Shown: piece by piece, positions 4,317 through 50,310 of the stretch
Position numbering within the stretch: the first letter of the stretch is position 1
Layout: every line of letters begins with the position of its first letter
Translations under genes and position numbers: made by a program
The notes under the pieces: model-generated
Database searches by the model: none
What the model was told of the DNA's origin: nothing
What the model saw: only the letters and a program-made list of their open reading frames with translations
From: a virus
DNA length: 64,000 nt
Reading direction: 5' to 3' (one strand)
Virus record (IMG/VR): IMGVR_UViG_3300002461_000311
Span: 1-64,000 of that record

Positions 4317-4720
4317 AGGGCGAAGATCCTGTTCGAGCCCGAATCGAACTGAATCGTGATGTCGGCGCCGTTGGGCGTGCAGGGCAAGCCCGTCGCCGTG
4401 TCGACCAGCGCGATCAGATCCTTGGTGGCCTCCGTGCCTGGCGTGTCGTTGAAGAACACCAGCGACTCGAACTGGTCACCGCTCACCGTGGCCACCGTGA
4501 TGTCAGCCGCATCGAACACGCCACCCGTGAACGTCTTGCTCGCCAGGGCGCCGGAGGTGAACACCCGGGCCGGGGCAGTGATGTCGTCCAGGAAGTCGTC
4601 GGTCGCCACGTTGGGCGTGTCATCGGCGTGGTCGACGCCGATGATCTTGATCGAGTCATTCAGATTGACGGTCGCCTGGAGCAATTGCTCCTTGAACGAT
4701 GCAAACAGTGCGTTGGGCAT
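4313..4720 (-). CDS. hypothetical virion protein (135 aa, start MPNALF)
   Basis: ATG at 4720 lies one nt after the portal stop and is preceded by a GAGGAAGGA RBS. Confidence 0.7.
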   Translation of the reverse strand: MPNALFASFKEQLLQATVNLNDSIKIIGVDHADDTPNVATDDFLDDITAPARVFTSGALASKTFTGGVFDAADITVATVSGDQFESLVFFNDTPGTEATKDLIALVDTATGLPCTPNGADITIQFDSGSNRIFAL

Positions 4721-4721
4721 G

Positions 4722-20411: not shown

Positions 20412-21096
20412 GATCTCTCCCGTAGACCGCGTTGAAGAATCCCGACCGATCGTTCTGCGGGCGCCCCCGGCTCTTCAGGGCGAAGAGCCCGGTCCAGCCC
20501 GCCTCCATCGATTGCCTGATGACCTGCGTCGGGTCGTTGCCCTGCGCCTGCAGCTCGGCAAGGAGCTTGAACTGCCGCTGAGCAAGCGGAGGGCGCACCG
20601 GCTTGCGCAGCTCCTTGGATCGGTACCGCAGCCACGCATCCCAGACCTCGCGGTCCAGCCACGCGGGGACGGTTACTGACGGTTCTATGACGGTTCCTGA
20701 TGGTTCGGGTGCAATAGCTGTTGCACCCTTTTCGACGTCAGGTTGCACCCTTTCTGTCGAAAGTTGCACCCTTTCTGACGCCGGGTTGCACCCTTTTTGT
20801 AAGGGTGCAAGATCTGCACCCTTTATCCATTCCGGGTTGATCCGGTACTCGCGCGGCTGTCCGCGCCCACCCTTCTCATGCCCGACCAGGATCAACCAAC
20901 CCTCGGCCTCCATCTGCCTGAGCTGGTACTGCACGGCGCGCTCGGACTGGCGAGTCTTCGCGGCCAGTGCGGCGACGCTCGGGTACACGTGCGTGCCGTC
21001 TTCGTGAGCGTGGTCGGCCAGAGCGAGTGCTAGCAGCATCTCGCTCCCGCCTCGGTGATAGCGATCGAACACAGCGCTCATCACCTTGACGCTCAT
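20353..21096 (-). CDS. replication initiator (lambda-O-like, N-terminal wHTH) carrying the ori iterons
   Basis: HTH-type N-terminus; iteron array lies inside the gene as in lambda O; GGGAGGA RBS. Confidence 0.7.
   Translation of the reverse strand: MSVKVMSAVFDRYHRGGSEMLLALALADHAHEDGTHVYPSVAALAAKTRQSERAVQYQLRQMEAEGWLILVGHEKGGRGQPREYRINPEWIKGADLAPLQKGCNPASERVQLSTERVQPDVEKGATAIAPEPSGTVIEPSVTVPAWLDREVWDAWLRYRSKELRKPVRPPLAQRQFKLLAELQAQGNDPTQVIRQSMEAGWTGLFALKSRGRPQNDRSGFFNAVYGRDHAQHSDDGAFIHGTAERVG
20709..20826. repeat. origin iterons: TGCACCCTTT x5 direct (starts 20722, 20744, 20765, 20787, 20816) plus one inverted copy (20801-20810)
   Basis: Direct reading; the first four are spaced 21-22 bp (two helical turns). 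Confidence 0.8.
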
Positions 21097-34969: not shown

Positions 34970-35026
34970 TGGAGCGCCGAGGCTTCGAGGTCGCCCGCGC
35001 CTACCACAACAGCGCCGCGAGAGCTT

Positions 35027-35106
35027 GCCATAAGGTACCTTGTGGCAAAACTCCGTGGCCACCCCACTGGGTAACCCAGTGGGCAAGCCATTGGGTAACC
35101 CACTGG
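35027..35106. promoter_or_regulatory. cluster of three palindromes (GCCATAAGGTACCTTGTGGC; CCACTGGGTAACCCAGTGG; CCATTGGGTAACCCACTGG) heading a ~490-bp non-coding, lower-GC region
   Basis: Direct reading at 35027-35046, 35064-35082 and 35088-35106. Confidence 0.6.
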
Positions 35107-35456
35107 CAGACGCCAAGGGGAGTCATCGGCTTAGCACGACTGACGACGCGCGGCTTCGCAACAGCTAGCTGCGGCGAATTTACGTGCGGGACGGAGCGCC
35201 ACTTATCGAATGAATTTCGGAATCTTTTCGATACGGCGGCGCAGCAAATTCGTAGAGCAATGAATTGTATGGGGAATTACGGTCGGATTGGGGCTTGCCG
35301 TCTGTTGCCCATGCACACAAAGAGCACCTTGAATTTCTCTTTGTCATTCATGGTGTTGCGACCCAACTCGCCCCCAAAAATAGGGGGCAAAAAACGCCTA
35401 TACCGACCAAAAGGAATCAATGGGTTAGCACATCATTTCGGAATGGGGATTTTGAC

Positions 35457-35753
35457 ATGAACGACGTGGAGATGGTGGAGTTTGAGCGCGCCGGGGAGCT
35501 TATCCGATGGGCTCGGATGCAGGCTGGGGCCAGCCAGAGGGAGGTGGCGCGCGCCATGGGTCTTGGCGACACACAGCAAAAGACGGTGTTTCACTGGGAG
35601 CGTGGAAGTCGCGAACCCCTGGCAAGCAACTTCATCGCCGCTTGCCAGGCGTGCGGGTTCAACGTGGTCCTGCTGCCGATGTCCGAGGAGGAGCTAGCGC
35701 GACTCGACGCTGCGCCAGTTGGCGCAGAAGGTAGCTTGCCGTCACAGGGTTAA
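35457..35753 (+). CDS. XRE-family HTH protein (98 aa)
   Basis: ASQREVARAMGLGDTQQKTVFHWERG helix-turn-helix; the 3' end overlaps the convergent gene. Confidence 0.6.
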   Translation: MNDVEMVEFERAGELIRWARMQAGASQREVARAMGLGDTQQKTVFHWERGSREPLASNFIAACQACGFNVVLLPMSEEELARLDAAPVGAEGSLPSQG

Positions 35754-36357
35754 TGCCGTGGGCGGCGGCGATGGCCTTATACGTCATTCCCATCGTCCGT
35801 TGCTTGGCCATTGCGAGAACGGCCTCCTCCGAGACCTTGTTTCTCGGCCTTGCTCCGGTCTTGAATGTGCCGCGATTCGTTTCCGCTTGTTGTTTCGGCG
35901 TGGCCCATCGACAGTTGCTTGGCTCGTAGTTGCCGTCTGGGTCTATCCGGTCTAGCGTGGTCCCGAGCGGCCTTTCGCCCATGTCGGCCAGGAAGGTTTC
36001 GAAGCTGGACCAGCTTGCGCAAACCGAGATACCGCGGCCGCCGTACCACGTCCACTGAGGGGCCTCTGGGTTCGAACACCGCCTGCGCATTTCTTTCCAG
36101 GATCTGTAGGTCCTGGTGTCCGACATTCCGTGAGTAGTTGATCGGCGAAGCAGGACGTCTCTTGATAGACAGCCGCAGGACTTGGTGTGCCCAGAGCGCA
36201 ACTTGAGCGAGTTTGCCTCGGTTGCCGCGCCGCAGTCGCAGCGGCACACCCATATCTTTCCTGTGCTGGACCGCCTGCTAGACGGAGAAACAACGATGAG
36301 CCGGCCAAAGCGCAGGCCAACCAAATCCAATGCCCTGGTACCATCGCGAGCAGCCAT
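35659..36357 (-). CDS. homing-endonuclease-like protein (Zn-ribbon + HNH_3-related core + HTH), copy 1
   Basis: CRCDCG...SCGC, YRSWKEMRRRCSNP...YGGRGISVC and LDRIDPDGNYEPSNCRWAT motifs; paralog at 43342..43935. Confidence 0.7.
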   Translation of the reverse strand: MAARDGTRALDLVGLRFGRLIVVSPSSRRSSTGKIWVCRCDCGAATEANSLKLRSGHTKSCGCLSRDVLLRRSTTHGMSDTRTYRSWKEMRRRCSNPEAPQWTWYGGRGISVCASWSSFETFLADMGERPLGTTLDRIDPDGNYEPSNCRWATPKQQAETNRGTFKTGARPRNKVSEEAVLAMAKQRTMGMTYKAIAAAHGINPVTASYLLRQLAQRRVALAPPRTSAAGPR

Positions 36358-38035: not shown

Positions 38036-41000
38036 CTACTGACCCATCCGCTCCGCGAACTCGCGCTCGATGTCGCGACGCCGGGTAACCTGGCGATCGA
38101 GCCGGGCGTTGAACTCCTCGTCGGAGATGCCGCGACGCTGGCGCTCGCGCCGAGCGGCGCCGATCTTCTGGGAGATCTCGCGCAGCGCCTCATCGCGCTG
38201 GCGGGCAAGGTTCACCCGGCCGGCATCCGCCGGGTAGGAGCCCAGCTTCACGCCAAAGGCCGAGGACAGCGCCTGCGGCAGGTTGCGCTCGCGCCCGAAG
38301 GCGTCGGTCTCGCCGGTACCGGCGGCCTGAATGGCCTTCCAAGAGTAGGTCTGGAAGAGCCCGCGTTGCATCGCGATCGAGTCGGCCGCGTAGCCCACCG
38401 GGTTGGGTAGCGGAAGGTTGGGCATGAGGAACTTGGCGATGTGGTCCATCACCTTCGTCGCGCCCTCGCCGAAGGTGTCGGTCTTGCCGACGATGTCCTT
38501 GCCGGTGAACTGGCTGCGGTTGGAGATCAGCTCGATCATGAGCGCCATCGGGCCGCCCACAGTCATCCACGGCGGCACCGGGATCGCGCTCTTCGAGCCG
38601 TTGAGGTCCATGATGTCGCCACCGGGAATCCAGCGACGCACGTCGAGGAAGACCGGGCTGTCGTTGGCGTCGTTCCAGGGCATGCGAAGGAGCCTCGGGA
38701 ACACCAGCAGCGTGCGCCCAGAGCGCTCGTCGGGCAGTAGCGCCCGCTCCTCCTCCTCGTCGCCGGCCGCGCCCAGCATGCCGTAGGCGAGCGCGTTGAG
38801 CGCATACCCCACGGACAGGTACTTCACCATCTTCCACGGGGTCTTGGTCATCGCGTCGATCAGGATCGGCACGATCCGGTAGGTGAACGCGATGAACGGG
38901 AGCGGGCCGCGGCGCAGGGCCTGAATCCAGGGGGCGTTGATGGAGTAGTCGAGGAACGCCTTGCGGGCGAGCTGCCCCGCCTCGCGGTCAGTCTTGCCGG
39001 CGGCGGTCTCCTTCATGAACTTCGCCAGGCGGAAGACGGCGTCCTCTTGCCGATAGAGGTCGATCATCGCCTTGAAGGGGGCAGCGCCCATCTTGCCCAG
39101 GCGCTTGGCCGTCGAGGTGCTCGCCAGGGCGACGAGCGCCTGCTTGAGGCTGCTGCCGCGCGCCAGGTGGATCGCCTGGATCAGGGACAGGTTCTGCGCC
39201 ACGGTGTCGCGCTCGGACTCCAACTGCTTGAGGATCGGCTCGATCACGTCCTGGCGCATCTCGATGGCAGCGAAGCTGCCGCCCTCGGACCCCGAGTCGT
39301 AGAAGCGCTCCATCATGGCCGAGGCAGCTTCGTCGCCGCGCTTGGCGTCGATGATCGTCACCAGGGCGGCGCGCAGATCCTCCGGCCCCAGGTTGGCCAG
39401 GTCGGCCATGACGACGTTGGCCATCACGTTGTTGGTGTGAACGGCCGGGCTGAGCGCCGTCTTGCTGATCTTCCAGGCGGTCAGAAGATCGTCCCACAGC
39501 CGCCACACGGCCGAGGCGCTGCGGAAGTTCACCGTCGCGCGAATGTCGTTCCAGATGTGCCCAGGAATGAATTGTCCAGCGAGGAGCCCGTACTTCTTGA
39601 GCTTCGTGCCGTAGGCGTTGGTCTTGGGAACTTCCACCCATTCGTTGTCAGCATAGGCGCGCAGGGTCGTCTTCGAGTCGGACGCCTCGGAGATCTTGCC
39701 GCCCGCCGCGATCACCTCCTCCTCGGTCGCCTTGCCGTACTCGGTGCCGACCCACTTGAGGAACTTCGCCGTCTCGATGTCCTGGATGGACGCGAGGGCG
39801 GTGCGTGCGAAGGCGTAGCGGATCTCCTCGATCTCGCCCAGGCGCTCGCGCTCGGGCTTGGAGAGATCGCGCCACATGCCGACGTTGCCATTCTTCTCGA
39901 ACCAGCGCGCCTCCCACACCCCGTCGTTGCGCCAGCCGGCGTGCTTCGCCGGGATGGGCTCGCCCTCTTTGACGTACGCCACGCGCTTGAGCTTGCCCAG
40001 CTCGCCTTCGGCGCCCGGGTCGCGAAGCTCCATGCGCACGTACTTGTCGCCCTTCTGAACACCAGGCAGCCGATCGCCGCTGATGTCGTGACGCAGGCCG
40101 CGTCCCCGATAGGTCTCTGCCCGGATGGCCTTCGCCTTGCGGTTGGCCGACACGAAGGCTGCGCCCTCGACCTCGTGCTTCTGGTAGGAGCGATGCAGGT
40201 ACGCCATCTTGTTGCGCCCGTACGACTCCTCGGAGAGCAGCCCCAGCTCGACAGCATCGCGCCCGAGCTGGTCGATCTGCTCCTTCATCGCCGCGAGAGT
40301 GGCGCGCGAGTCCGCCGGCAGGATCGCCATCATCTGGCGCTCCGCGTCGGTGTCGGGTTTCTCCTGCATCCAGAGGTAGGCGACGCGAGACTCGGCCATG
40401 CTCAGGCTGCCGATCTGGTCGATCATCGCCTTGGACTTGCGCAAGTGCGCATTGACGCGCCGCTCGCGCTCGTCTCGCTCGGAGAGGTAGGGCTCAGGCA
40501 GACCGTAGTCGGCAACGATGCCGTGCGCGATCTGCTGGCGGATGGCGCCGCCCTTGAACCAAGCGGCGGTCGCGCTCGAGACGCGATCGGCGAGCCGGCC
40601 CGTCACCTTGGCGACCGGGGCGAGCGGGAACCGCAGCGCGGCATCCGTTGCCCGGTTGATCGCCTGCGCTGCTTTGGTGACTGGGGCGACGGCCTTGGTC
40701 GCCATCCGCGTTGCGGCGAGCGCCGGCGCCCTCGATGCTTCGATGGCCTCGTCTACAACATCGAGCGCAACGCCAATCGGCTTGAGCGCGGCATCGAGTG
40801 TGCTCGCAACAGTCCGCGCGACTATGCCCGGCTGGTACTCTTGCTCGGCTCGAACGCCGCGATCTCCGCTCGCGACGTCAAGCCCTGGGCGCGCGCTGCG
40901 CGAATAGAGGATAGCTTGGTTCGCAGTGTCGCCTCGGGCCAACATGCCGGGAGAAAGGTGTTTTGAAGATACGCCTCGCTTTCCTCTAGCCCCGGAGGCC

Positions 41001-44000
41001 AAGAGCGATTGCGTAACAATTCCTCGTAGGATAGTTGCGTACCCGCTTCCCGAATCTCGCCCGGCGTCAGTGGCGGCAACGTCGTTTGCCCACTGCTGGA
41101 CTGTTCGCTTGTCGTCTCCACGAGGCACCCTCCACTCGAATTGTGAGGACTCGAAATTATAGCGGGCGGACTTTATTTCGTCTATGGATTGAAGGACATT
41201 CGCATAGGAATCGTAGATCAAAAGACCGAGATTGTAGCGGTCATCGTCGCCGTACTGATCCTCCACTTCTCGCCAGGCATGCTCGACCGATTGGTTCCAC
41301 GAGGGCCTCATCCATTTCGTCGTGCCAAGTCGCAGCGCCGCGCTCATCATCTGGTCGTTGCGACGGATGGCGGCAATCGGCGACACCGCCGCCGGGTCGC
41401 CGATAAAGGTCATCTCATTGTTGGCGGCATACTGCATGGCAACTTGATAGATGGCGCTACCAAGGCCGCTTTCCCGGATGTCGGATGTATCGACCCAGAC
41501 CGTTCGATCGGCGTCGCTTTGGCTAATCAGGCCGCGGATCACGCGGCCACGCCCATCCTTGCCGAGATTGATCGAGAAGGAGTCGTCGCTGAAGTCGTGG
41601 ATGTCGGAGCGGTGGACTAAAGAGCGGTCGCTTTTCTGAATACGCATCCCGAGCGCGATTTCGGTAATCGTCTTCGCGTTCGACCGCCCATAACGAAACG
41701 CTCTTGCGTCGTCCGAGATCTTCAGCCAGGCATCGGCCATGTCCATCAGCCGCCCGGGGGACGGGCGCCCCCCCTCTCCAGGACGCGCAGCACGAGAAAA
41801 CAGAGCCTTCAATGCAGAAGGCCCAGCTTTTTGCTGGGCCTTCGCGGATGCTGCCGGGTTTACTCCAACTCGTCTAGGCGGGGGAATCGGCCGGTCGCGA
41901 TGATTGCCTTTCCCTTCTTCACCTGCTCCGGCGTCAGTTCCGGAATGTCCCCGTTGCGAAACAGCGGGTGATCCGGCTTGAAAGGCCTCCCCTCCTCGAT
42001 CGCCTGCTTGACGAGCCTGTAGTCCTCTTCTCGGGGAAGATACTGCTGTATCCACCACCAAGGAACTGGATCGCCGAATTTTTCCGCGTAGTCCGCGTAA
42101 AGCCTGGCCAAGTCGGTTCCACGGAGTCTTTGAGATGTCGTCGATGAGTCGGAAGGCATGGGGCAACTCCTGCATCATGAGTTCGCGGTTCGTAGTGTAC
42201 GCCCTCACGAGTTGAGCGAAAAGCTCGCGTCGGATTTGGCCGGCCGTCATGGCCTCCCAGTATCCAGTGGCCAGCGGATATTTGAAAAGTTCACTCAACG
42301 GGCCGGTTTCGGCGTCCCAGACAAAAAACACCTCTCGGGCCACCTCGCCGCTCACCTCAATCTTGTCGCCGCTCTTCGTGAGCGCGAATGCGGGATGGAT
42401 CTCCGACAGAAAGCTGCCGTCCTTCTGCTTATCTAAAGCATGACCGAGTTCGTGCGCGATCGTTCCGATGAGGCGCTGCGAGTTGTTGATCGCACGCGGG
42501 ACGCCAGGTGGACCAGCCACATCTTCGTGGACGGTTATGCCATCAAATATGCTCCAGTACGCCCCGTCAATGCCGCCTCGACCCACCATGGCGTCGTCAT
42601 GCACACCCCAGATGATAACGGACTTGGCAGCCCTTTCAAGAATTGGCGAGGCGCGAAGCGTGTCATTGAGAGCTGACGCGATGTTCGCGCGCAGATCTGC
42701 GTGGATGGTACGGTCTAGTCGCCACCTCATCCAGGTCGGGAGCTTTTTATCGCGCCCAGGATCAATGCCGTCGTCCACCCCTACATGCAGGCGTCCATTG
42801 CGATCTTCGCCGACAAACTGAAACAACAACTGCTGGTCGCCGGCTGGGCGACTTAGATCGCCGCGTTGCAGCCACAGCTTGAATGCGTCTACGGTTGGGA
42901 AGGAGGCGATCGATCGAATCCGCTTCTCCCACCCGGCCTCGTATTCGTCTAGGTAGGCGGAGCGAGCCTCTTCCAGGGAGGGGAAGCCCATCATTACCTT
43001 CGCCTCGTCGTGCCTTCCGCTGGGGTTGTTTTGATCAACCACGAACACTGGGCCGTTGTAGTCAAGCGGCATGCCTGGCCTGAGAAAAACATCCACGGCA
43101 TCGCCGTCCTTACCGATGAAGCCGCCTCTGATGTAGCCGTAGTGCGACTTCATCGAGCGCGACCATCGCCTTCCGCCTGCGTCTACGCCAGAGCGGGTAG
43201 ACCCTGCCGGATTCTCGACCGAGATCGACAGTCCGCGCACCACTACCTGGCCGACCTTGTAATTGCCCTGCTTTTTCTGCGCCTCAGTAGGCTCCGGCAA
43301 ATCGTTGGCAGGGGACGTTGCGGCTTGGTGCGCGCCAACGTCTACCGTTGCGCCCGGAGATCCCCGCCTATCAGCGCCCGCTCTATCGGCAAGCCCCGAC
43401 GAATCCTCTCTCGAAGCGTTCGCACTTTCACGCCCAAGCGCCTTGCCCACTTCGGCAGCGTCATCGACTCCCCGTTTAGTGTCAGCATCGCGCTGTCTCG
43501 ACGATCCAGACGTTTCGTATCGAGTTCTCGCCCCGCCCTCGCCCGCCGGTAAAGAGTCTGCGCTGGTTTGCCCAACGCCCTTGCCGCTTCGGCCACCGTC
43601 AGTTGGTGGCCGCCCACCATTACTCGGTGACAATACCGACGATTGGCCGCCTGCTGCTGCCTGGTCGCCCATCGACAGTTGCCTGGCTCGTAGTTGCCGT
43701 CTGGGTCTATCCGATCCAACGTCAACCCCGGGCTCTGCTTTGGCCCGATGTCGCTGAGAAAACGCTCGAAGCTGTGCAGCCAAAGAGGACTGATCGTCAC
43801 GCCCCGCGCCCCGTAGTATTTGAAGTCTGGGCTCTTCGGGTTGAGGCAGCGACGCTTCATGTGCTGCCACGCTTGGTACTCTGCTTTGTACTGGCTTCTG
43901 GGTCCTGGGCTCTTTGCCATCGCTTGTCCTACCATTGGCGCGACCGCGCGACCTTGCTTGGACCTCGAGAGCGGCGTATTTGTTCTCGGTCGGCTGGGGC

Positions 44001-47000
44001 TTATCGTTCTTGGGGGAGGTGGCCGCCTCGTGGGCGGCAGCGTCTACGCTTGCTCGGGCTTCTTGGGCGCCTTCTTCTGCTCGGCGGCCTTCGGCTTCGG
44101 CAAAGCGCCGAAAAAGGTCTGCCCAACGACCCAGGACTGCTGGTAGATTGGGTCGTCCTCCTTCGCGTAAGGAATCCCGAAGAAGTCGTCCTTCTGGGTC
44201 TGCTTGCCAGTCATGGTACGGGTATCCTGTTTCGGCGCCGACAGCGACATAGGACTTCACTTTAGCAGGAAGGTTTCCGCCCTGCACGAGCTTCGTCACC
44301 CCCGCCGCGAACTCCTGGTCGCTCATGACGAACGGCATGCCGTCGTCACCCCTAAAGTTCATGAGCACGATCTCGCGATCGTTCAGGCGGGTGAGCCCCA
44401 TGCCATCGTTCACGTCTCGGCGAACAGCAGCATAAACAGCGCGCAGCTCAGCGTCACCAACATTCGCATCGAAGCTGATCTTCACGCCCTTGGTCGCGCC
44501 GGGGTCGCGCGCAAGCGCGGGGTCGGCGCGGAAGAACGGCACCGCATCCTGACGAAAGACGTACATCCATCCGCGCGCCACGCGCTCCACCACATCGCGG
44601 TCGGCGCGCACCGTGGCAACGGCGTTCGGCGCCACTTGGTTCTCGTAGGCCCCCGCCCCGCCCACAACCTCGAATTGCGAGGGCCTCAGACCGAATGCCC
44701 TGAAATAGACGTCCGGACCACCCTTGCCGAAGACGGCCTTGAGGGCGTTGTCCTGGTAGCGCTGGAGTTCTTCGAGGCTCAGGTTTGCCACCGCCTGGCC
44801 AATCCGTAGCTGCGTCGAGGGGCGCGTCTCTGCCGTGATGGTGGCGCCGGGGCGGCGCCCACGAGACTTCAGGATGTTGCGCACGCTCGCGTCAAAGGCG
44901 CCCGAGTTGCCGAGCGAAGACTTCACGTGCGTCGGCTCGAACGGCATCAGGTGCAGCGTGCCGGGATAGACGCCTTGCATGCCTATGCCGAAGGGGCCGC
45001 GAGCGCGCGGGCCGAACGCCATGTCGGCGTCCATGATGATGCCGTCGTAACCGAGCGCCTCGACCGCCTGGCGAATGATTTCCCCAGGCGACACCAGTTC
45101 GCCGTTGCTGTCATACGCCTCGGAGAGTCCGCTGCGCACCAGGGCCGCGGCGTCGTACGCGCTCTTGCCCTCCGGATCGCTCAGTAGATCAGTAAGCGCC
45201 TCGGAGGCATCGGCATCGTAGGTGGATGCCACGTCGCGGATGGCGTTCGCGAAATCGACGAGCGTGCCGCCCTCGCTGACGATGTCCTCGCCGTCCTCGC
45301 TATACTCAATCTCAGAGGTGAGCTGCAAGCCGCTCGGGCGCATGTCGAACGGGTTCTTCATCTTCACCCAGAGGGGCATGATCAACCCCTTGGAGTCGCC
45401 AGCCACCGCCGCCCTCGCGGATTGCGCGACGGCCTTCTCGAAGAGCAGGTCGCGCACGGTCTCTTTCTGCGCATCGGTCAGCTCGCCATAGTCGAGATCC
45501 GCAAGCGCAACCCCCAGCTCCTCTGCCGCGCGGCGCGCGTCCTCCGGGTTCTTGTCGAGGTGATCGGCCATCGCTTCGTCGAGCGCGAAACTGTCGTCGC
45601 GCCATGCATCGGCGAGCTGCTCTTTGGAGCGCTCGATGCGACCGGTCAGGTCCGGCCCCTCGCCCGCGTAGTTGATGCTCGCGTCGTCGCGCGAGGTCGT
45701 CACATAGAAGCCGTTGCCCAGCCAGCCTTCGGCGGTGCCGGCCCGGGGCGCCGTGTCGATCTCCTGAATGTTCGAGTGCGTCGTGCCGTGGAAGGCTTCA
45801 AACACTGCTGGCCCGCCCTCGTAGTCCTCCGTCTGCTCGGCGCGAACCACGGGCATGCCCTCGGACCAGCGCTTGAAGGCATCGGTGTCGATCTGATCGG
45901 GCGGCGGGACGAACTGCTCCTGGCGAGCAGCGGCACCGCGGGACTTGAGGGCCTCCATGTCGCGCTTCACGCCCGAGGCGGCCGGCGTCGGGCTCGCCGA
46001 CTCGGACTTGACCCAGTCGGCCGTAGCCTGAGCGAGCGCCTTGCGGGCCGCGTCGAGATCCTTGATGTACTGAGCGGACTCCAGGCCGGGCCGGCCGAGA
46101 CCGAGCTTCGAGCGGATCACATCCAGGGTCAGCATCACCGCGTCGCGGATCTTCATCACCATGGAGCGATCGAGCCCCTTCAGCACCTGGCGCCAGAACT
46201 CGGGCTCGTTCATCCGATCGCCGAGCATGTCGGCCATCAGCTCCTCGGTGACCAGATCCTCGGAGGCGCGCGCCTTCGGGTTGTCGGTCTCCTCCTGGAT
46301 GGCGGCGTCGAGCCACGCGCGATAGCGCGCGGTGTCGCGCATCAACGGCGCCATCCGGGCGACCAGCGTGCGGTAGACGGCGCCGTTGGAGCGGCGCAGC
46401 GAGTGCAACAACTCGTGGCCAATGATGGCCAGGTGGGAGCGGGTCGCGTCCGCGTTGATGTAGATCGTCGACGGGTCGCTCGGGATGATGAATCCCTGGG
46501 CCTGGTCTTCGGGCTTTACGGGCTTGGCGTACCGGAAGAAGACGACGCGTCGCTTGAAGATGTCTCGGGCGACTCGCAGTCCTGCTGCAACATCAGCGGA
46601 AGCAGGCACCTCAGCCTCGGTCGCGAGACGGGCGAGCCCTCCGGTGGCGGCGGTGACGCGCACCCCTTCGTTGGGTCGGGGTGCGTCGCCCCGGCGCCAC
46701 ATGGGCGGGGTGTCGTCGGTACCGGTGGCTTCGGTGTCATTGAGCGTTCCCTCTCGCAGGGCCTTGCGATACTCGGTCGCGCGGCGGGTGAGGCGCCACG
46801 CGCCGCTCGGCGTAGGATAGCCGAAGCCCAGCTCGATCGCGCGGCGGCGCTCGGACTGGTTGAGCCGCTCGCCCTTGAACAGGCGCTCGGCCCAGTTCTG
46901 ATCGTTGGCGCTCGGGGCCTGCTCGCGCAGAGCAGTGCGCCGCGCCAGCTCGCCGGCCGCGCGCTCTTGCGCTTGCTTGGCGCCTTTCCTGGCAACGAAT

Positions 47001-48793
47001 CGCAGGGTGTTGTCGTTCAGATCGCGCGGGTCGTTGCCCAGCACCTTGCGCTGAGCGTCCTCCAGATCTCGGTCGGCCTGCTCCTTGGGCGTCTTGCGGA
47101 ACTGGTTTGGATTGATCCCGGCCTGCTCGAGCGCGAGCCCCAGCGGCGAGGTGAGCGGCGGGGCACCCATATCCACGCCCGCCGACACGGCATCGGCGAC
47201 CGCCACCGAGAGATCGCGCTGGCGCTGCGACTCCTGGGCGAGCATCTCCAGCTCACGATCCCGCTGCGCTTCGCGCTCGCGTTCCGCAAGGTCAAGCGCT
47301 GCCCGGGCCTGGTCGGACACGCGCGGCGGACGCGGGGCGATCGTCTGCCCCGGGGTCGCGCTCGGCGCCGGAGCGGCCATGCCGGTCGCCTCCGCAAGCG
47401 CCTGGCGCGCGCCGGCAGCGTCGTAGGGGATGGCATCCGCCGCGGACGCCGGCTGCGCCTGCGGCTCTGCTGGCGGGCTTGCCGGGGAGAAATCGACCCC
47501 TTCGTCGCCCGGCTCGCGCCAGGTCGTCGTGGCCTCGATCTCGCGGCGCTCACGCTCCTGGTTGGCGCGATCCTGCGCTTCGATGCGCGCCATCTCGGCC
47601 TGCTCGCGATCGTACGGGATGGTTTCCAGGCCGGAGGCGCCGGCGCCAGTCGTGGTCCCGGGCTCTTCGGTGCCGAGGACATCACCGGCCGGAATGGGCG
47701 CGTTCTCGGGCGCGGGCGCTTCTGCGCTTCGACCGAAGATCGCGTTCTGTCCGGCGCCCTGCACCGAGCCGATGGCGAGGCCGCCCAGGCCCTCGTTGAG
47801 GGCGCCCTGGGTGAGCGGACGCTCCGGGTCGACCGCGCGCATGGCGACGTTCTCGCCGACCTTGGAGAGGTAGCTTTGCGGGAACTCCTCGAGCAGGCCC
47901 TCGCTCACAGCGCCCGTGGCCGCGCGGCGCGCGAGCCCGCCGGCCTGGCCGGCAATGGCCTTGGCCAGCGCCCGGTCACCCAGGCCGCCGAACACGCCCG
48001 TCGCCACGCCCGCCAGCACCATCGCCCGGCTCTTCACGTCCCGGATGATCTGGTCTTTTGCCGCCTCGTAGGTGAGCCCCTCGAACATCAGCGACTTGAT
48101 GACCTCGGAGTCGCGAAGCTGGGCGTCCGGAATGCGGCGGATCTCCTCCTCGACGTTCTGCGCCGCCCCGCCGGCCGCGAACGCCGCCTCGGTGCTGCGG
48201 CCCGCCATCATGGCCGTGCGTGCAGCCGCCTTCCCGGCGGCCACCTTGTCGCCAGTCTTCTCGAGCGCAGTCTTGTAGGCCGAGCGCGCCAACACCTGGG
48301 CCGGCGCCATCGACAAGATCTGCTCGGGCAGCGACTCTGCGATGCCCCGCGTGTAGGTGCGCCAGTCGGACCAGGCATCGCCGAACGTGCCGGCCTCCTC
48401 ATCCCACCATTGCTTGCGCCCTGCCGCCTGGAATCCGGGCGAGTAGCTCTGCTCGAGCCCCTCGGCCGCCCCTTTCAGGGCCTCCTTGGTACGGTCGCCA
48501 CCCATCGCCGGGCGCACGATCCTGGCTGCGCGTTCGATCATCCCCAGGCCGGGGATGTGCTCGACCACCGGGCGGATGACCTCGTCGAGCGAAGCGGGCG
48601 CCCGCAGCGCGCCACGGGCAAGGCCCACGCCCACGTCTTTGACCGTCTCGATGGCCGAATCGAGGAAGGACGACTCTTTCCCCTCGTCGAAGGACATCGG
48701 CGCCGGAGCCGGAGCCGACCAGTTGCGCTCCCAGGGCTTGCGCTCCTCGGATGCGCCCGTCTGCCCAGACCAGTTACGCTCCCATGGTTTCAC
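38036..48793 (-). CDS. giant multidomain virion (polyvalent/ejection-type) protein, ~3585 aa
   Basis: Uninterrupted ORF; the likely start is GTG at 48793 (GTGA coupling, GGGAGG RBS), and the track start is 48808. Contains two HExxH zincin motifs (HELLH, HELGH), an ART-like FHGT..GNGFYVT segment, a pyrophosphatase-like GKDGDAVDVF segment and a TM-containing C-terminal ~900 aa. Frame anomalies at 40.8-44.3 kb are described in the findings. Confidence 0.75.
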   Translation of the reverse strand: MKPWERNWSGQTGASEERKPWERNWSAPAPAPMSFDEGKESSFLDSAIETVKDVGVGLARGALRAPASLDEVIRPVVEHIPGLGMIERAARIVRPAMGGDRTKEALKGAAEGLEQSYSPGFQAAGRKQWWDEEAGTFGDAWSDWRTYTRGIAESLPEQILSMAPAQVLARSAYKTALEKTGDKVAAGKAAARTAMMAGRSTEAAFAAGGAAQNVEEEIRRIPDAQLRDSEVIKSLMFEGLTYEAAKDQIIRDVKSRAMVLAGVATGVFGGLGDRALAKAIAGQAGGLARRAATGAVSEGLLEEFPQSYLSKVGENVAMRAVDPERPLTQGALNEGLGGLAIGSVQGAGQNAIFGRSAEAPAPENAPIPAGDVLGTEEPGTTTGAGASGLETIPYDREQAEMARIEAQDRANQERERREIEATTTWREPGDEGVDFSPASPPAEPQAQPASAADAIPYDAAGARQALAEATGMAAPAPSATPGQTIAPRPPRVSDQARAALDLAEREREAQRDRELEMLAQESQRQRDLSVAVADAVSAGVDMGAPPLTSPLGLALEQAGINPNQFRKTPKEQADRDLEDAQRKVLGNDPRDLNDNTLRFVARKGAKQAQERAAGELARRTALREQAPSANDQNWAERLFKGERLNQSERRRAIELGFGYPTPSGAWRLTRRATEYRKALREGTLNDTEATGTDDTPPMWRRGDAPRPNEGVRVTAATGGLARLATEAEVPASADVAAGLRVARDIFKRRVVFFRYAKPVKPEDQAQGFIIPSDPSTIYINADATRSHLAIIGHELLHSLRRSNGAVYRTLVARMAPLMRDTARYRAWLDAAIQEETDNPKARASEDLVTEELMADMLGDRMNEPEFWRQVLKGLDRSMVMKIRDAVMLTLDVIRSKLGLGRPGLESAQYIKDLDAARKALAQATADWVKSESASPTPAASGVKRDMEALKSRGAAARQEQFVPPPDQIDTDAFKRWSEGMPVVRAEQTEDYEGGPAVFEAFHGTTHSNIQEIDTAPRAGTAEGWLGNGFYVTTSRDDASINYAGEGPDLTGRIERSKEQLADAWRDDSFALDEAMADHLDKNPEDARRAAEELGVALADLDYGELTDAQKETVRDLLFEKAVAQSARAAVAGDSKGLIMPLWVKMKNPFDMRPSGLQLTSEIEYSEDGEDIVSEGGTLVDFANAIRDVASTYDADASEALTDLLSDPEGKSAYDAAALVRSGLSEAYDSNGELVSPGEIIRQAVEALGYDGIIMDADMAFGPRARGPFGIGMQGVYPGTLHLMPFEPTHVKSSLGNSGAFDASVRNILKSRGRRPGATITAETRPSTQLRIGQAVANLSLEELQRYQDNALKAVFGKGGPDVYFRAFGLRPSQFEVVGGAGAYENQVAPNAVATVRADRDVVERVARGWMYVFRQDAVPFFRADPALARDPGATKGVKISFDANVGDAELRAVYAAVRRDVNDGMGLTRLNDREIVLMNFRGDDGMPFVMSDQEFAAGVTKLVQGGNLPAKVKSYVAVGAETGYPYHDWQADPEGRLLRDSLREGGRPNLPAVLGRWADLFRRFAEAEGRRAEEGAQEARASVDAAAHEAATSPKNDKPQPTENKYAALEVQARSRGRANGRTSDGKEPRTQKPVQSRVPSVAAHEASLPQPEEPRLQILRGAGRDDQSSLAAQLRAFSQRHRAKAEPGVDVGSDRPRRQLRARQLSMGDQAAAGGQSSVLSPSNGGRPPTDGGRSGKGVGQTSADSLPAGEGGARTRYETSGSSRQRDADTKRGVDDAAEVGKALGRESANASREDSSGLADRAGADRRGSPGATVDVGAHQAATSPANDLPEPTEAQKKQGNYKVGQVVVRGLSISVENPAGSTRSGVDAGGRRWSRSMKSHYGYIRGGFIGKDGDAVDVFLRPGMPLDYNGPVFVVDQNNPSGRHDEAKVMMGFPSLEEARSAYLDEYEAGWEKRIRSIASFPTVDAFKLWLQRGDLSRPAGDQQLLFQFVGEDRNGRLHVGVDDGIDPGRDKKLPTWMRWRLDRTIHADLRANIASALNDTLRASPILERAAKSVIIWGVHDDAMVGRGGIDGAYWSIFDGITVHEDVAGPPGVPRAINNSQRLIGTIAHELGHALDKQKDGSFLSEIHPAFALTKSGDKIEVSGEVAREVFFVWDAETGPLSELFKYPLATGYWEAMTAGQIRRELFAQLVRAYTTNRELMMQELPHAFRLIDDISKTPWNRLGQALRGLRGKIRRSSSLVVDTAVSSPRRGLQARQAGDRGGEAFQAGSPAVSQRGHSGTDAGAGEEGKGNHRDRPIPPPRRVGVNPAASAKAQQKAGPSALKALFSRAARPGEGGRPSPGRLMDMADAWLKISDDARAFRYGRSNAKTITEIALGMRIQKSDRSLVHRSDIHDFSDDSFSINLGKDGRGRVIRGLISQSDADRTVWVDTSDIRESGLGSAIYQVAMQYAANNEMTFIGDPAAVSPIAAIRRNDQMMSAALRLGTTKWMRPSWNQSVEHAWREVEDQYGDDDRYNLGLLIYDSYANVLQSIDEIKSARYNFESSQFEWRVPRGDDKRTVQQWANDVAATDAGRDSGSGYATILRGIVTQSLLASGARGKRGVSSKHLSPGMLARGDTANQAILYSRSARPGLDVASGDRGVRAEQEYQPGIVARTVASTLDAALKPIGVALDVVDEAIEASRAPALAATRMATKAVAPVTKAAQAINRATDAALRFPLAPVAKVTGRLADRVSSATAAWFKGGAIRQQIAHGIVADYGLPEPYLSERDERERRVNAHLRKSKAMIDQIGSLSMAESRVAYLWMQEKPDTDAERQMMAILPADSRATLAAMKEQIDQLGRDAVELGLLSEESYGRNKMAYLHRSYQKHEVEGAAFVSANRKAKAIRAETYRGRGLRHDISGDRLPGVQKGDKYVRMELRDPGAEGELGKLKRVAYVKEGEPIPAKHAGWRNDGVWEARWFEKNGNVGMWRDLSKPERERLGEIEEIRYAFARTALASIQDIETAKFLKWVGTEYGKATEEEVIAAGGKISEASDSKTTLRAYADNEWVEVPKTNAYGTKLKKYGLLAGQFIPGHIWNDIRATVNFRSASAVWRLWDDLLTAWKISKTALSPAVHTNNVMANVVMADLANLGPEDLRAALVTIIDAKRGDEAASAMMERFYDSGSEGGSFAAIEMRQDVIEPILKQLESERDTVAQNLSLIQAIHLARGSSLKQALVALASTSTAKRLGKMGAAPFKAMIDLYRQEDAVFRLAKFMKETAAGKTDREAGQLARKAFLDYSINAPWIQALRRGPLPFIAFTYRIVPILIDAMTKTPWKMVKYLSVGYALNALAYGMLGAAGDEEEERALLPDERSGRTLLVFPRLLRMPWNDANDSPVFLDVRRWIPGGDIMDLNGSKSAIPVPPWMTVGGPMALMIELISNRSQFTGKDIVGKTDTFGEGATKVMDHIAKFLMPNLPLPNPVGYAADSIAMQRGLFQTYSWKAIQAAGTGETDAFGRERNLPQALSSAFGVKLGSYPADAGRVNLARQRDEALREISQKIGAARRERQRRGISDEEFNARLDRQVTRRRDIEREFAERMGQ
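40822..41121 (-). CDS. +1-frame ORF nested in the giant gene (99 codons, GTG); weak coding evidence
   Basis: Protein-like composition (LTPGEIREAGTQLSYEELLRN...), but third-position GC does not discriminate it from frame 0. Confidence 0.2.
   Translation of the reverse strand: METTSEQSSSGQTTLPPLTPGEIREAGTQLSYEELLRNRSWPPGLEESEAYLQNTFLPACWPEATLRTKLSSIRAARAQGLTSRAEIAAFEPSKSTSRA
41815..41841 (-). terminator. 11-bp-stem hairpin GAAGGCCCAGC-N5-GCTGGGCCTTC inside the giant ORF, 19 nt after the +1-frame stop at 41860
   Basis: Direct reading; no clean U-tract. Confidence 0.4.
41860..42159 (-). CDS. +1-frame coding segment nested in the giant gene (99 codons; ...DLARLYADYAEKFGDPVPWWWIQQYLPREEDY...)
   Basis: Third-position GC is ~76% in the +1 frame from codon 15 onward, against my rough estimate of ~40% in frame 0. 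Balanced Trp/Lys/Glu composition; ends TAA then a hairpin. Confidence 0.5.
   Translation of the reverse strand: MPSDSSTTSQRLRGTDLARLYADYAEKFGDPVPWWWIQQYLPREEDYRLVKQAIEEGRPFKPDHPLFRNGDIPELTPEQVKKGKAIIATGRFPRLDELE
43280..44046 (-). mobile_element. endonuclease-gene cassette bounded by ~62-bp imperfect direct repeats (44046-43985 and 43344-43283)
   Basis: Both repeats start TAGACG and are 44/62 identical by hand alignment. In frame 0 both encode VDxxAHxAATSPxNDxPxPTE. Confidence 0.45.
43342..43935 (-). CDS. homing-endonuclease-like protein (HNH_3-related core + 2 HTH), copy 2, nested in the +1 frame of the giant gene
   Basis: About 50% aa identity to copy 1 across YxxWxxMxxRCxNP...YGxRG...LDRIDPDGNYEPxNCRWAT. 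AGGA RBS before the second ATG (43920). Confidence 0.72.
   Translation of the reverse strand: MVGQAMAKSPGPRSQYKAEYQAWQHMKRRCLNPKSPDFKYYGARGVTISPLWLHSFERFLSDIGPKQSPGLTLDRIDPDGNYEPGNCRWATRQQQAANRRYCHRVMVGGHQLTVAEAARALGKPAQTLYRRARAGRELDTKRLDRRDSAMLTLNGESMTLPKWARRLGVKVRTLRERIRRGLPIERALIGGDLRAQR
44044..44250 (-). CDS. +1-frame coding segment nested in the giant gene (68 codons; ...KQTQKDDFFGIPYAKEDDPIYQQSWVVGQTFFGALPKPKAAEQKKAPKKPEQA)
   Basis: Third-position GC is 57/68 (84%) in the +1 frame versus 28/68 (41%) in frame 0 by hand count. Ends TAG. Confidence 0.45.
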   Translation of the reverse strand: MSLSAPKQDTRTMTGKQTQKDDFFGIPYAKEDDPIYQQSWVVGQTFFGALPKPKAAEQKKAPKKPEQA

Positions 48794-50310
48794 CGTGCCG
48801 CCTCCCACGAGCTGGGCGAGTTCGGGTCGCCACCCTTGAATCGGAAGCCATCGACGACGCCACCCACCACCGGGCCGCCGGCTGACCTGGGATTGCGATT
48901 GCCGATCGGCTCCAGGCCGGGGGCGCCGCGGATCTGCTTGGTCTCGGCCCCCAATGCGGCGGTGACGCGGGCCGCTTCGGCCTTGCTCAGCTTGGTAGCC
49001 GGCAGGAGGCGACGCACATCGTCAGCGCTCCATCCGCCCTCTTCCACCATGCGGCGGACGAACGCCGCCAGCGCCTTGTTCTTCGTCTCATCGCGATAGT
49101 TGCCTTTCTCTGACGCGCTCAGCGCCGAGCGCAGCGTCTCATCGAGCGACACGGCCCGGTCGCGGAACTCGTAGTAGACGGTCTCGAACGCGGTCTCGGG
49201 GTTGGAACCGCTGCGGATGCGCTCGCCCAGCGCGCTCTTCATCGCCGGCAGCAAGGTCATCATGCCGTTGACGTTGAACTTCGCATCCTCCTTGGCCTGC
49301 TCACCCTCGAGCAGGCGCCGGTACCCGAGCGCGCCCTTCTCGATCAGATCGTTGACGTCCTTGGGCTTGAGCCCGCCGCCGCTGGTTTCGCGGCGAAGGT
49401 TCAGGGTGGCGTTCCGGTAGCTCTGGATCGCGTCGATCTCTGCCTTCTTGAGTTTCTCGTTTGCCTGGTTGTGCCGCACCGTCTCTGCCTGGGCCGCCTC
49501 CCGGGTCGCAACCTCGCGCTTCTTCAGCCCGACGTTCGGGTCCTTGTCCCACTCCCAGAGCTTCTGGGCGCGGGCGCGCGATTGCTGGTAGTCGATCTCC
49601 ATCGACTTGGTCGGGTCAGACATCATGGCGATGTGACTCTCCAGCTCCTGCTCGGTCATCGTCTTCGGGATGCGCTGCCCGTTGTACTCGAAGACCATGG
49701 CGTAGGCGCGCTCGCCCTTCTCGTTGGTCGTCGGCTTGAACGATGCCGGGTCGATCTTGCCGCCGTCGCCCCAGAGGTTGTTGTAGACATCGACCACGCC
49801 GGACGCGTCGCCCGTGGTCTTGAGCCGAGCGTAGGCATCGCCCGCCGTGCGCTTGCGCAGATCCGCGCGCATGGCCGCAGCGCGCTGGAGATGCTGGTCA
49901 GCCAGATCGATCCGGCCGCGCGCCGCGTAGGCATTCGCCATGGCCTCGGCCGCCGCCGCAGCCGCGCCCTCGCGACCGAACCGGCTCGGTGTACCGGGGC
50001 GCGCCGCCTGCTCGAGCGCCTCCTCGGGCGGGCGCTCGAAGAGATCGCCATCATCCCCAGCCGATGGGCCGGGCATCGCGGGCGCCGCCGGCCCGCCCAT
50101 GGCGCGCTCGAACGCAGTTCGACCCGCTTCGCGCGCCTCGTTGTTCAGGCGCTCGATGTCGTCGGCCGTGCGCTTCTCGCGCTCGGAGCGATCCCGCTCG
50201 AACTCGAAGCGTTGCTTGTCCCGATCGTCGCGCTCCTGCTTCGAGCGACGATCGACCGCCGTCTGATACCCAGCAATGCCTCCAGAGAGGAACGCCCCGA
50301 GTCGACTCAT
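48790..50310 (-). CDS. internal virion / ejection-associated protein (506 aa)
   Basis: Charged coiled-coil-rich protein immediately upstream of the giant gene and coupled to it. Confidence 0.7.
   Translation of the reverse strand: MSRLGAFLSGGIAGYQTAVDRRSKQERDDRDKQRFEFERDRSEREKRTADDIERLNNEAREAGRTAFERAMGGPAAPAMPGPSAGDDGDLFERPPEEALEQAARPGTPSRFGREGAAAAAAEAMANAYAARGRIDLADQHLQRAAAMRADLRKRTAGDAYARLKTTGDASGVVDVYNNLWGDGGKIDPASFKPTTNEKGERAYAMVFEYNGQRIPKTMTEQELESHIAMMSDPTKSMEIDYQQSRARAQKLWEWDKDPNVGLKKREVATREAAQAETVRHNQANEKLKKAEIDAIQSYRNATLNLRRETSGGGLKPKDVNDLIEKGALGYRRLLEGEQAKEDAKFNVNGMMTLLPAMKSALGERIRSGSNPETAFETVYYEFRDRAVSLDETLRSALSASEKGNYRDETKNKALAAFVRRMVEEGGWSADDVRRLLPATKLSKAEAARVTAALGAETKQIRGAPGLEPIGNRNPRSAGGPVVGGVVDGFRFKGGDPNSPSSWEAAR

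Follow-up and report, generated by a model that had tools for sequence, protein, structure and literature searches.

A +1-frame ORF, its TAA stop codon and a perfect 11-bp hairpin lie within a giant polyvalent virion-protein gene on the minus strand of a 64,000-nucleotide viral sequence (positions 1 to 64,000 of IMG/VR record IMGVR_UViG_3300002461_000311, hereafter the window), and this stretch is probably the 3' end of a cassette that was acquired by horizontal transfer and now forms part of the giant gene. The most likely reading of the sequence is that an effector domain and a putative immunity gene were captured together and that the stop codon of the former was lost. The cassette would span approximately 42790–41741, comprising a frame-0 HExxH domain, a small +1-frame partner gene and a terminator-type hairpin, and would have taken the place of the short segment between InPase and LPD37 in relatives. 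An earlier note on this DNA had taken the ORF, stop codon and hairpin as marking where a formerly separate gene ended; all three are present, and the interpretation is upheld by four outside loci with the same gene order and by relatives of the giant gene that are without the whole block. Coordinates of the features are given in Table 1.

Table 1. Features of the giant ORF and of the embedded block (window positions)
Feature	Position	Strand	Remarks
Giant polyvalent virion-protein ORF	38036..48808	minus	3590 codons from GTG 48808 (ORF list and translation)
Two InPase N-terminal motif copies	43283..44047	minus	~75% DNA identity; bracket the HNH insertion
Second nested gene, HNH homing endonuclease	43342..43935	minus	197 aa, HTH tail; same +1 frame
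HExxH (zincin-like) domain, frame 0	42113..42790	minus	HELGH at 42454-42440
AGGAG Shine-Dalgarno-like motif	42167..42171	minus	7 nt upstream of ATG 42159
Nested small gene, +1 frame	41860..42159	minus	99 codons from ATG 42159 or 83 from TTG 42111
Frame-0 codon CGA	42113..42115	minus	Site of the stop in outside HExxH proteins; candidate former TGA stop
Frame-0 read-through segment	41741..42112	minus	aa 2233-2356; crosses small gene, hairpin and former intergenic spacer
Perfect 11-bp hairpin GAAGGCCCAGC-AAAAA-GCTGGGCCTTC	41817..41843	minus	16 nt past TAA
Alternative weaker hairpin, 8 pairs	41793..41824	minus	Shares GGGCCTTC arm, then TGTTTTCT
LPD37 domain	40997..41740	minus	Pfam LPD37 at 4e-37

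The giant ORF, its relatives and its assemblies

The public gene call for the giant ORF starts at 48793 and gives a product of 3585 aa, which is the only product in the public annotation for the contig, nested genes not being listed. Pfam matches were obtained to ART-PolyVal, InPase and LPD37 and PHROGs matches to DarB-like proteins, and the adjoining genes encode internal-virion, tail-fibre and endolysin proteins; the ORF thus encodes a single polypeptide with several effector-type domains and lies among virion genes, as is characteristic of polyvalent proteins. Phage_Mu_F was not found in the giant ORF by Pfam search. Single giant ORFs are present in relatives L004 (3502 aa), L018 (3491 aa) and L019 (3147 aa), and all three carry LPD37 and the C-terminus within the one ORF. 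In L004 and L018 InPase is followed by a short segment and then by LPD37, with no small gene, HNH gene or HExxH block between them. A GC3 that is lower in the central region of the giant ORF than on either side is also in keeping with insertion. The giant gene gave no megablast match in phages and the conserved C-terminus no tblastn match in GenBank phages and PLSDB plasmids, and a search for a close variant carrying the cassette found none, all other cassette-bearing contigs being 100% identical.

A sequencing or assembly artefact, such as a chimeric join or a base error leading to a lost stop codon or a changed frame, would fit the metagenome-assembly source of the sequence and a central region of 3.6 kb in which GC3 is below that of the flanks. 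The exact 3585-aa product is, however, present on three contigs from separate assemblies and therefore does not reflect an assembly error, and the DNA is 100% identical over 14.7–20.5 kb between independent assemblies from different runs. In addition, the +1 offset corresponds to the natural stop-N-start geometry seen in outside locus L001, for which no frameshift is needed, and a chimera would rarely leave a frame of 3590 codons open. An artefact as the source of the arrangement is hardly credible.

An apparent third +1 'tail' at 44217–44040 was not accepted as a gene, since in this stretch frame 0 is homologous to L004, the equivalent linker of L004 has the same odd composition and no family hits were obtained. 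Further nested-ORF candidates in L004 (4653–4835, p=0.17) and L005 (63–224) were not upheld.

The small +1-frame gene and its outside homologs

Coding signal passes from frame 0 to the +1 frame, as the earlier note had proposed. From 42148 to 41900 it is the +1 frame that shows the GC pattern typical of coding DNA, with GC2 lowest and GC3 highest (GC of 0.72, 0.65 and 0.37 at frame-0 positions 1, 2 and 3). The small gene contains a family-homologous core at 42108–41971 and terminates at TAA 41862–41860 with the C-terminus ...RLDELE. An exhaustive phmmer search with the +1 peptide identified a stand-alone 58-aa protein, P0002, which is 42–45% identical and aligns from its own Met. P0002 and small ORFs at loci L007, L008 and L011 make up a protein family that has no name yet. 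Profiles built from these four outside homologs only, with the window sequence left out, were searched against 1065 six-frame segments of the window and gave the +1 ORF as sole match (E=1.4e-11 and 4.6e-10), the runner-up having E=3. The +1 ORF is unbroken over 83–99 codons and retains all of the family-conserved residues, the core being ..EYADKFGE.(V/F)P.(W/F)...E....(I/V)K.AI..G.P.. in sequence. The small gene is therefore a member of this family.

Wider searches were negative: a word-indexed protein search with the +1 peptide gave no match, GenBank phages and PLSDB plasmids yielded no tblastn match to this peptide or to the small protein of L008, and no relative of the family was confirmed in two metagenome scans. 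The small protein matched no annotated family in Pfam or PHROGs. A PDB profile search returned noise only and no solved structure, and an AF2 model generated from a two-sequence alignment was of too low a quality for comparison of folds (pLDDT 64).

At the outside loci the small gene is a separate gene of 52–60 aa with its own ATG, which in L001/2/3, L007, L008/9 and L011 lies 1–10 nt past the stop of a MuF-HExxH gene. The upstream proteins score 33–51 bits for Pfam Phage_Mu_F (cut-off 29.6) and carry a C-terminal HExxH domain, and a hairpin with a T-run follows the small gene in L001, L008/L009 and L011. HExxH domain, small gene and hairpin follow one another in the same order in the window. 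Judged from the sequences, the order of the block is that of the true 3' ends of MuF-HExxH genes at four independent outside loci.

Two potential start codons are available to the small gene. TTG 42111 stands exactly where L008 and L011 have ATG and gives an N-terminus of the same length as theirs, with a weak, SD-like GGA before it. ATG 42159 is preceded by AGGAG, and genuine genes of the window have GGAGG or AGGAG at 6–8 nt upstream of the start; such a motif accompanies 22 of 896 minus-strand ATGs (2.5%). From the poor codon bias of the first 14 codons after the +1 ATG it had been argued that independent initiation does not occur there. The bias is indeed poor, but this is because these codons still belong to the last part of the HExxH domain in frame 0, and with a TTG at the family start and an AGGAG-preceded ATG 42159 the case against independent initiation therefore fails.

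The same earlier description had treated the +1 stretch as a '+1-frame tail', implying a programmed +1 frameshift near 42110 that would yield a truncated protein ending in ...RLDELE beside the full-length product. The handover of coding signal from frame 0 to +1 within a few codons fits such a model, and decoding of CGA may be slow where the host genome is rich in G+C, which would also count in its favour. The homologs of the +1 peptide are, however, separate genes with their own ATG, beginning past a real stop at offsets of +1, +2, +2 and +1 relative to the upstream frame, and this variability therefore indicates that there is no conserved frameshift. Inspection of ...CCG TGG AAC CGA CTT... 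(42125–42105) revealed no slippery or re-pairing site, and the N-terminus from TTG 42111 equals those of L008 and L011 in length. A programmed frameshift is thus very improbable. The +1 stretch thus appears, on present sequence comparisons, to be an independent small gene and not a frameshifted tail, and it would be expressed from a start of its own.

The HExxH domain, the read-through segment and the hairpins

The HExxH domain occupies aa 2007–2232 of the 3590 encoded in frame 0; it is not C-terminal and no stop follows it. A counterpart is absent from L004 and L018. When the last ~43 residues of the domain were compared with the C-terminal ends of outside MuF-HExxH proteins by hhalign, a weak but collinear match at the C-terminal end of the domain was obtained (P=2.3e-4, probability 32–44%), compared with P=0.43 and 0.5 for slices used as controls. 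The window domain was not detected by HMMER with profiles made from the outside HExxH domains, and the data are only suggestive of homology between the two. The domain alone gave no match in a word-indexed search or by tblastn against GenBank phages and PLSDB plasmids, and a word-indexed search with a 660-aa frame-0 stretch gave no find among the 8000 candidates listed.

The frame-0 HExxH domain ends at approximately 42116 and the small-family core starts at 42108. Between them, CGA (42115–42113) is followed by a single nucleotide (c, 42112) and then by TTG, so that the junction of the window is 'AAC CGA c TTG', to be compared with 'GTG TAA c ATG' in L001. The outside proteins end 10–13 residues past PKSY(K/E)I, and the CGA is the 11th codon past PHAFRL in the window. 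A change from TGA to CGA may thus have been the fusing event, a conjecture drawn from the geometry of the junction. As the HExxH domain has no stop, ribosomes in frame 0 would translate the small gene in its -1 frame and go on across the hairpin and the old spacer, and the product would contain a linker of ~124 residues, probably disordered, followed by LPD37 and the conserved C-terminal ~1230 residues.

The translation confirms that frame 0 runs on past the hairpin (...ALKALFSRAARPG...MDMADAW), as had been reported. Across the small gene frame 0 contains 0 stops where 3–4 are expected, and was stop-free in 0.5–1.7% of synonymous-codon shuffles (p=0.005–0.017). The open frame is non-random, although these p-values alone are modest and survivorship of a lucky insertion fits as well as ongoing selection. 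Residues R, G, S, A and P make up 63% of the read-through segment and hydrophobic residues 15%, compared with 36–42% and 29–33%, respectively, in the flanking domains, and aa 2233–2356 are predicted to form a disordered linker. Homology to relatives restarts exactly at Met 41740 (MADAW...), the BLASTP HSP with L004 starting from window aa 2357. Neither this Met nor Met 41746 has a convincing SD.

The 11-bp hairpin is present behind the TAA as first described, at a distance of 16 nt and not 19, a trivial discrepancy. Perfect hairpins with a stem of at least 11 bp number three in the 64 kb, compared with 0.1 expected from shuffles, and the local fold at the main hairpin has z=-3.5. Its stem-loop is G+C-rich as in an intrinsic terminator, but the sequence right after the stem, CTGCATTG, contains no adjacent T-run and the immediate U-run of such terminators is lacking. 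A scan for terminator-like structures flagged only the weaker overlapping hairpin with TGTTTTCT, and this alternative and the 11-bp hairpin are mutually exclusive. T-runs are present both at the terminators of the outside loci and at the phage's own terminator (60372–60348). No second copy of the hairpin 27-mer was found in the window or IMG/VR, and Rfam gave no match around the flagged region.

These structures, together with the exact restart of homology at a Met codon, could mean that two cistrons exist, the hairpin terminating transcription or the message being split, with LPD37 and the C-terminus made from Met 41746 or 41740 and the continuous ORF a by-product of high G+C content. The strong hairpin, the alternative hairpin with TGTTTTCT just upstream of these codons and off-frame stop-free runs of 200–300 codons in GC-rich L004 are in keeping with this. 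Frame 0 is nonetheless without stops, which obliges every ribosome translating a full-length message to continue, and its openness is unlikely given codon usage, across the small gene as given above and across the nested HNH gene (p=0.002). The lack of an SD at the LPD37 Met codons, the lack of a T-run adjacent to the main hairpin and the internal position of LPD37 and the C-terminus within one giant ORF in L004, L018 and L019 also speak against two cistrons, which we consider improbable.

Alternatively, the cassette may have been captured as described while the +1 gene and hairpin are now inert, with the giant frame-0 protein as sole product and the ORF intact because the event was recent; this is unlikely, yet the most serious of the alternatives. 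The SD-like GGA at TTG 42111 is weak, the translational coupling of the outside loci would have been lost together with the upstream stop, and the main hairpin differs from the outside terminators and that of the phage in having no T-run, all of which would suit a fossil gene. On the other hand, every family-conserved residue has been kept in an ORF without interruption, the canonical AGGAG 7 nt before ATG 42159 resembles those of the phage's genuine genes, and loss of a partner or inhibitor would be costly if the HExxH domain needs one. In the preferred reading of a captured cassette whose small gene remains active, expression would be by internal initiation at AGGAG-ATG 42159 or TTG 42111, and the hairpin would be a largely disarmed terminator melted by translating ribosomes. 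The small protein may then inhibit the HExxH domain or confer immunity to it, an immunity role being suggested by the position of its gene.

Comparison with known systems and the nested HNH gene

In MuF polymorphic toxins the MuF domain is N-terminal, the effector domain is C-terminal and a small putative immunity ORF (<150 aa) lies directly downstream (Jamet et al. 2017, PMC5576092). The outside small genes have this arrangement, lying directly after MuF proteins with a C-terminal HExxH (metallopeptidase-type) extension and usually followed by a terminator, and the 83–99-codon ORF of the window is likewise small and directly past an effector domain. In contrast, the giant ORF is without a MuF domain, its HExxH domain is neither C-terminal nor followed by a stop, and the ORF that contains the small gene, in another frame, runs ~1230 codons further.

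For polyvalent proteins, in-frame domain shuffling has been described and processing of the polypeptides by zincin-like peptidase domains proposed (Iyer, Burroughs, Anand, de Souza, Aravind 2017, PMC5512222); that paper has 0 mentions of frameshifts, of homing endonucleases or of genes that are nested or overlap. The giant ORF, a multi-effector protein (ART-PolyVal, InPase, HExxH, LPD37) encoded among virion genes, conforms to this group, as do its relatives, in which the C-terminal scaffold is conserved and the payload modules vary. It differs in carrying two complete out-of-frame genes, the DNA of which doubles as linker. The locus suggests a cruder route for growth of giant virion proteins than in-frame shuffling, in which the host frame reads across embedded genes. 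More generally, we tentatively suggest that polyvalent giants grow by capture of whole cassettes, that selection holds the host frame open, that nested genes remain functional through internal initiation and that the small protein restrains the HExxH peptidase until ejection into a new host. If so, the locus would offer a testable case of dual-use DNA (nested gene and linker) arising from recent capture and not from long co-evolution, and the small proteins would form a new family associated with HExxH effector domains, with peptidase inhibition or immunity as their candidate role. Other giant phage proteins might similarly conceal, in long low-complexity 'linkers', genes that annotation pipelines miss.

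Rz1 of phage lambda, located within Rz, is an out-of-frame nested gene. In phage Ms6 a second endolysin is embedded in-frame (PMC3111421). As in these examples, the small gene has its own start and is entirely contained in a larger gene of the same orientation. They are co-evolved pairs in which both frames are structured, whereas the nested genes of the window appear to be recent imports and their host-frame reading is low-complexity filler.

The second nested gene lies 1.2 kb upstream of the small gene and encodes an HNH endonuclease that matches phrog_3377 (E=3.5e-52) within the phrog_3377/374 family and is 47% identical to a free-standing HNH protein encoded at 35659–36357. It is absent from L004, L018 and L019. 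Across this gene 5 stops are expected in frame 0, and the frame was stop-free in 0.2% of synonymous shuffles; here too the read-through product resembles a linker in composition. Homing endonucleases can split phage genes ('genes in pieces'), an example being mobE in nrdA of Aeromonas phage Aeh1. The HNH gene at 43935–43342 is similar in that an endonuclease gene lies inside a phage coding region, but the classic host gene becomes two separately translated pieces whereas in the window the frame stays open and encodes a single chain. The insertion is bracketed by two copies of the InPase N-terminal motif, VDAAAHEAATSPKNDKPQPTE at 44047–43985 and VDVGAHQAATSPANDLPEPTE at 43345–43283, a motif that is present in single copy in relatives.

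The small gene and its relatives

The gene-end signature that an earlier note had described within the giant ORF (a +1-frame ORF, its TAA and an 11-bp-stem hairpin) was borne out by the ORF itself, its G+C pattern and the rarity of the hairpin. A codon-position G+C plot displayed a coding-type pattern in the +1 frame between about 42148 and 41900, where frame 0, the reading frame of the giant ORF, had G+C of 0.72/0.65/0.37 at positions 1/2/3. Perfect hairpins with stems of at least 11 bp numbered only three in 64 kb, where shuffled sequence would give 0.1, and the one here lies 16 nt beyond the small-gene TAA rather than the 19 nt first reported. A weaker hairpin overlaps it, followed by TGTTTTCT. 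No T-run adjoins the perfect hairpin; T-runs are present at the phage's own terminator (60372-60348) and at hairpins of outside loci with small-gene homologs.

Principal features of the window and giant ORFs of three relatives
Feature	Coordinates	Strand	Details
Giant ORF	48808..38036	-	3590 codons
Nested HNH homing endonuclease	43935..43342	-	+1 frame, as small gene; 1.2 kb upstream of it
Small-gene ORF	42159..41860	-	+1 frame; 99 codons; ends ...RLDELE-TAA
Perfect hairpin	41843-41817	-	GAAGGCCCAGC-AAAAA-GCTGGGCCTTC
L004 giant ORF			3502 aa, single ORF; InPase-LPD37 interval ~90 aa of unrelated sequence
L018 giant ORF			3491 aa, single ORF; InPase-LPD37 interval ~150 aa of unrelated sequence
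L019 giant ORF			3147 aa, single ORF; homology to InPase and LPD37 undetected

The +1 peptide matched no Pfam or PHROG family, and word-indexed protein searches were empty. An exhaustive phmmer search of 1.8 billion representatives yielded one real relative, P0002, a complete 58-aa protein that is 42-47% identical and whose alignment begins at its own Met. When profiles of outside members only were used, segment 41863-42174 (-) was the sole match among 1065 six-frame segments of the window (E=1.4e-11 with a two-sequence and 4.6e-10 with a four-sequence profile; next best match E=3), which points to an independent small gene rather than a frameshifted tail. Viral contigs (L001-L003, L007, L008/L009, L011) carried P0002 and additional members, all in one context: the upstream gene matched Pfam Phage_Mu_F above threshold and ended in a HExxH domain (...TEAFAEM..NPE.LE.IK.YLPKSYEI..EM....-stop), and the small gene began 1-10 nt past its stop, with a hairpin and T-run 3' of it in L001, L008/L009 and L011. 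Offsets relative to the upstream genes were +1, +2, +2 and +1, a variability indicating that no frameshift is conserved; with homologs that are separate genes, the initial description as a +1-frame tail was abandoned. Of two candidate starts, ATG 42159 has AGGAG 7 nt upstream, as in genuine genes of the phage (an AGGAG-like motif precedes only 22 of the 896 minus-strand ATGs), and TTG 42111 gives MARLYA-DYAEKFG, an N-terminus just as long as those of L008 and L011.

The HExxH domain and a candidate stop loss

Directly before the small gene, frame 0 encodes a HExxH domain (HELGH at 42454-42440 (-)), for which a weak relationship to the outside HExxH domains is suggested. HMMER profiles of the latter did not detect it; pairwise BLASTP gave E=0.026 around the HExxH motif, and hhalign aligned its last ~43 residues with the outside domains (P=2.3e-4, probability 44%; two control slices, P=0.43 and 0.5), the ends reading YW..ELFAQ..N.E..LPHAFRLI in the window and YW..EAFAE..NPE..FPKSYKI outside. 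Past PKSY(K/E)I, the outside proteins run for 10-13 residues before their stop. Counting on from the end of PHAFRL, the 11th codon in the window is CGA (42115-42113); a single base separates it from TTG, the same arrangement as the TAA-c-ATG of L001. A TGA-to-CGA stop loss at this codon is an attractive, if unproven, reading.

The outside loci fit the layout of MuF polymorphic toxins. The window does not qualify as such a locus, having no MuF domain and an effector domain that is not C-terminal; its block most plausibly derives from a MuF toxin-type cassette. An effector, its partner gene and a terminator would have been captured together, the cassette would have lost its stop, and the giant frame would now run across it, perhaps while the small gene is still expressed internally. 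We regard this structural and evolutionary account as probable, whilst continued expression of the small gene is judged an even matter and a role for its product as an inhibitor or immunity partner is proposed tentatively. The locus is more interesting than a simple linker, and its arrangement varies on two known kinds, polyvalent proteins and toxin-immunity cassettes.

The giant gene, its possibly imported centre and probable read-through

Matches of the giant ORF to ART-PolyVal, InPase and LPD37 (Pfam) and to DarB-like families (PHROGs), together with neighbouring genes for tail fibre, internal virion proteins, endolysin and holin, indicate a temperate phage whose giant ORF encodes a polyvalent virion protein. 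This agrees with the polyvalent-protein concept, for which polypeptide processing by zincin-like peptidases has been proposed (PMC5512222); nested or overlapping genes, homing endonucleases and frameshifts are unmentioned there, and a literature search found no account of cassettes of this kind lying out of frame inside polyvalent proteins. The window corresponds to ENA contig ERZ922821 k127_41225 from an activated-carbon metagenome, and a further contig (L012) was 100% identical. The public gene call is one 3585-aa product. Other runs, assembled separately, contain this exact product and identical DNA, which makes an assembly artefact unlikely.

Among the relatives L004, L018 and L019 the ~870-aa C-terminus was conserved and payload domains were variable; neither the small gene nor any HNH gene was present in their fetched loci. 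Homology to L004 ended at aa 2006 (nt 42791) and picked up at aa 2357 (nt 41740, MADAW), which marks the block 42790-41741 (HExxH domain, small gene and hairpin) as lineage-specific, an insertion or replacement within a continuous ORF. GC3 was 0.6-0.75 in the central ~3.6 kb of the giant ORF versus ~0.9 in its flanks, suggesting import of this whole part (~44400-40800, spanning HNH, InPase, the HExxH block and the start of LPD37) from a lower-GC relative, possibly along with the endonuclease gene. In L004, a stretch of ~250 nt within the ART-like domain region (giant-ORF nt 4440-4680, locus ~6500-6740) may be a recent import: G+C is about 0.48 at every codon position, in a gene otherwise 65% GC.

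Frame 0 continues past the small gene and hairpin into ...MDMADAW. With the small-protein sequence and codon usage held fixed, it was stop-free in 0.5-1.7% of synonymous shuffles (3-3.8 stops expected). Residues 2233-2356 are 63% R/G/S/A/P and 15% hydrophobic, against 36-42% and 29-33% in the flanking domains; if translated, this stretch should form a disordered linker. No convincing SD precedes the Met codons at the LPD37 start. The open frame, linker composition, lack of an SD at LPD37 and lack of a T-run at the hairpin together favour one long polypeptide with the cassette tail as linker, with some termination or internal initiation possible.

The nested HNH ORF matched phrog_3377 (E=3.5e-52) and was 47% identical over the catalytic core to a free-standing HNH gene at 35659-36357 (-), which has the same PHROG families and is found a short way downstream of the lysis genes. 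The nested gene is bracketed at 44047-43985 and 43345-43283 by two diverged copies (~75% DNA identity) of the InPase N-terminal motif, single in relatives. Frame 0 is open across it although 5 stops are expected (p=0.002). Chance poorly explains a host frame that stays open across both of two nested out-of-frame genes.

Other candidate ORFs and sites

A third apparent +1 tail (...DDFFGIPYAKEDDPIYQQSWVVGQTFF...PEQA-stop; 44217-44040 (-)) with a +1-type GC pattern is probably spurious: at this position frame 0 shows homology to L004, whose equivalent E/A/G/R-rich linker has the same odd composition. An antisense 1225-codon ORF opposite the giant gene (45422-49099 (+)) was dismissed as a shadow ORF, common in coding DNA of high GC3, and does not count as evidence of a gene. 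In L004, homology to the N-terminal region of the window ends after a HExxH-type domain; at that point frame 0 becomes R/G/S/A/P-rich and the +1 frame (4653-4835) holds a plausible 60-aa protein (MRPPMDQSDNHAPEALVNEEFKAMWAKVDEERRAKGL...) that may be another nested small gene, its open-frame test not being significant (p=0.17) and family searches giving no matches. At the end of a Burkholderiales MAG contig (L005, 1-300), an SD-led 53-aa ORF (63-224, AGGAGGtaacgtaaATG) overlaps, in a different frame, the 5' part of a long ORF; farther on, the long ORF carries a distinct HExxH module (LLLHELGVHH) and, after it, the conserved C-terminus.

Elsewhere in the window, TTGCACCCTT(T) recurs at least five times within ~90 nt (20740-20830), in direct and inverted orientation, and the cluster looks like a putative protein-binding-site array, operator or origin-like. 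Three near-perfect palindromes of 16-17 nt (e.g. TTGCCATAAGGTACCTTGTGGCAA) lie within 150 nt at 35025-35178, apparently intergenic and adjoining regulatory and lysogeny genes.
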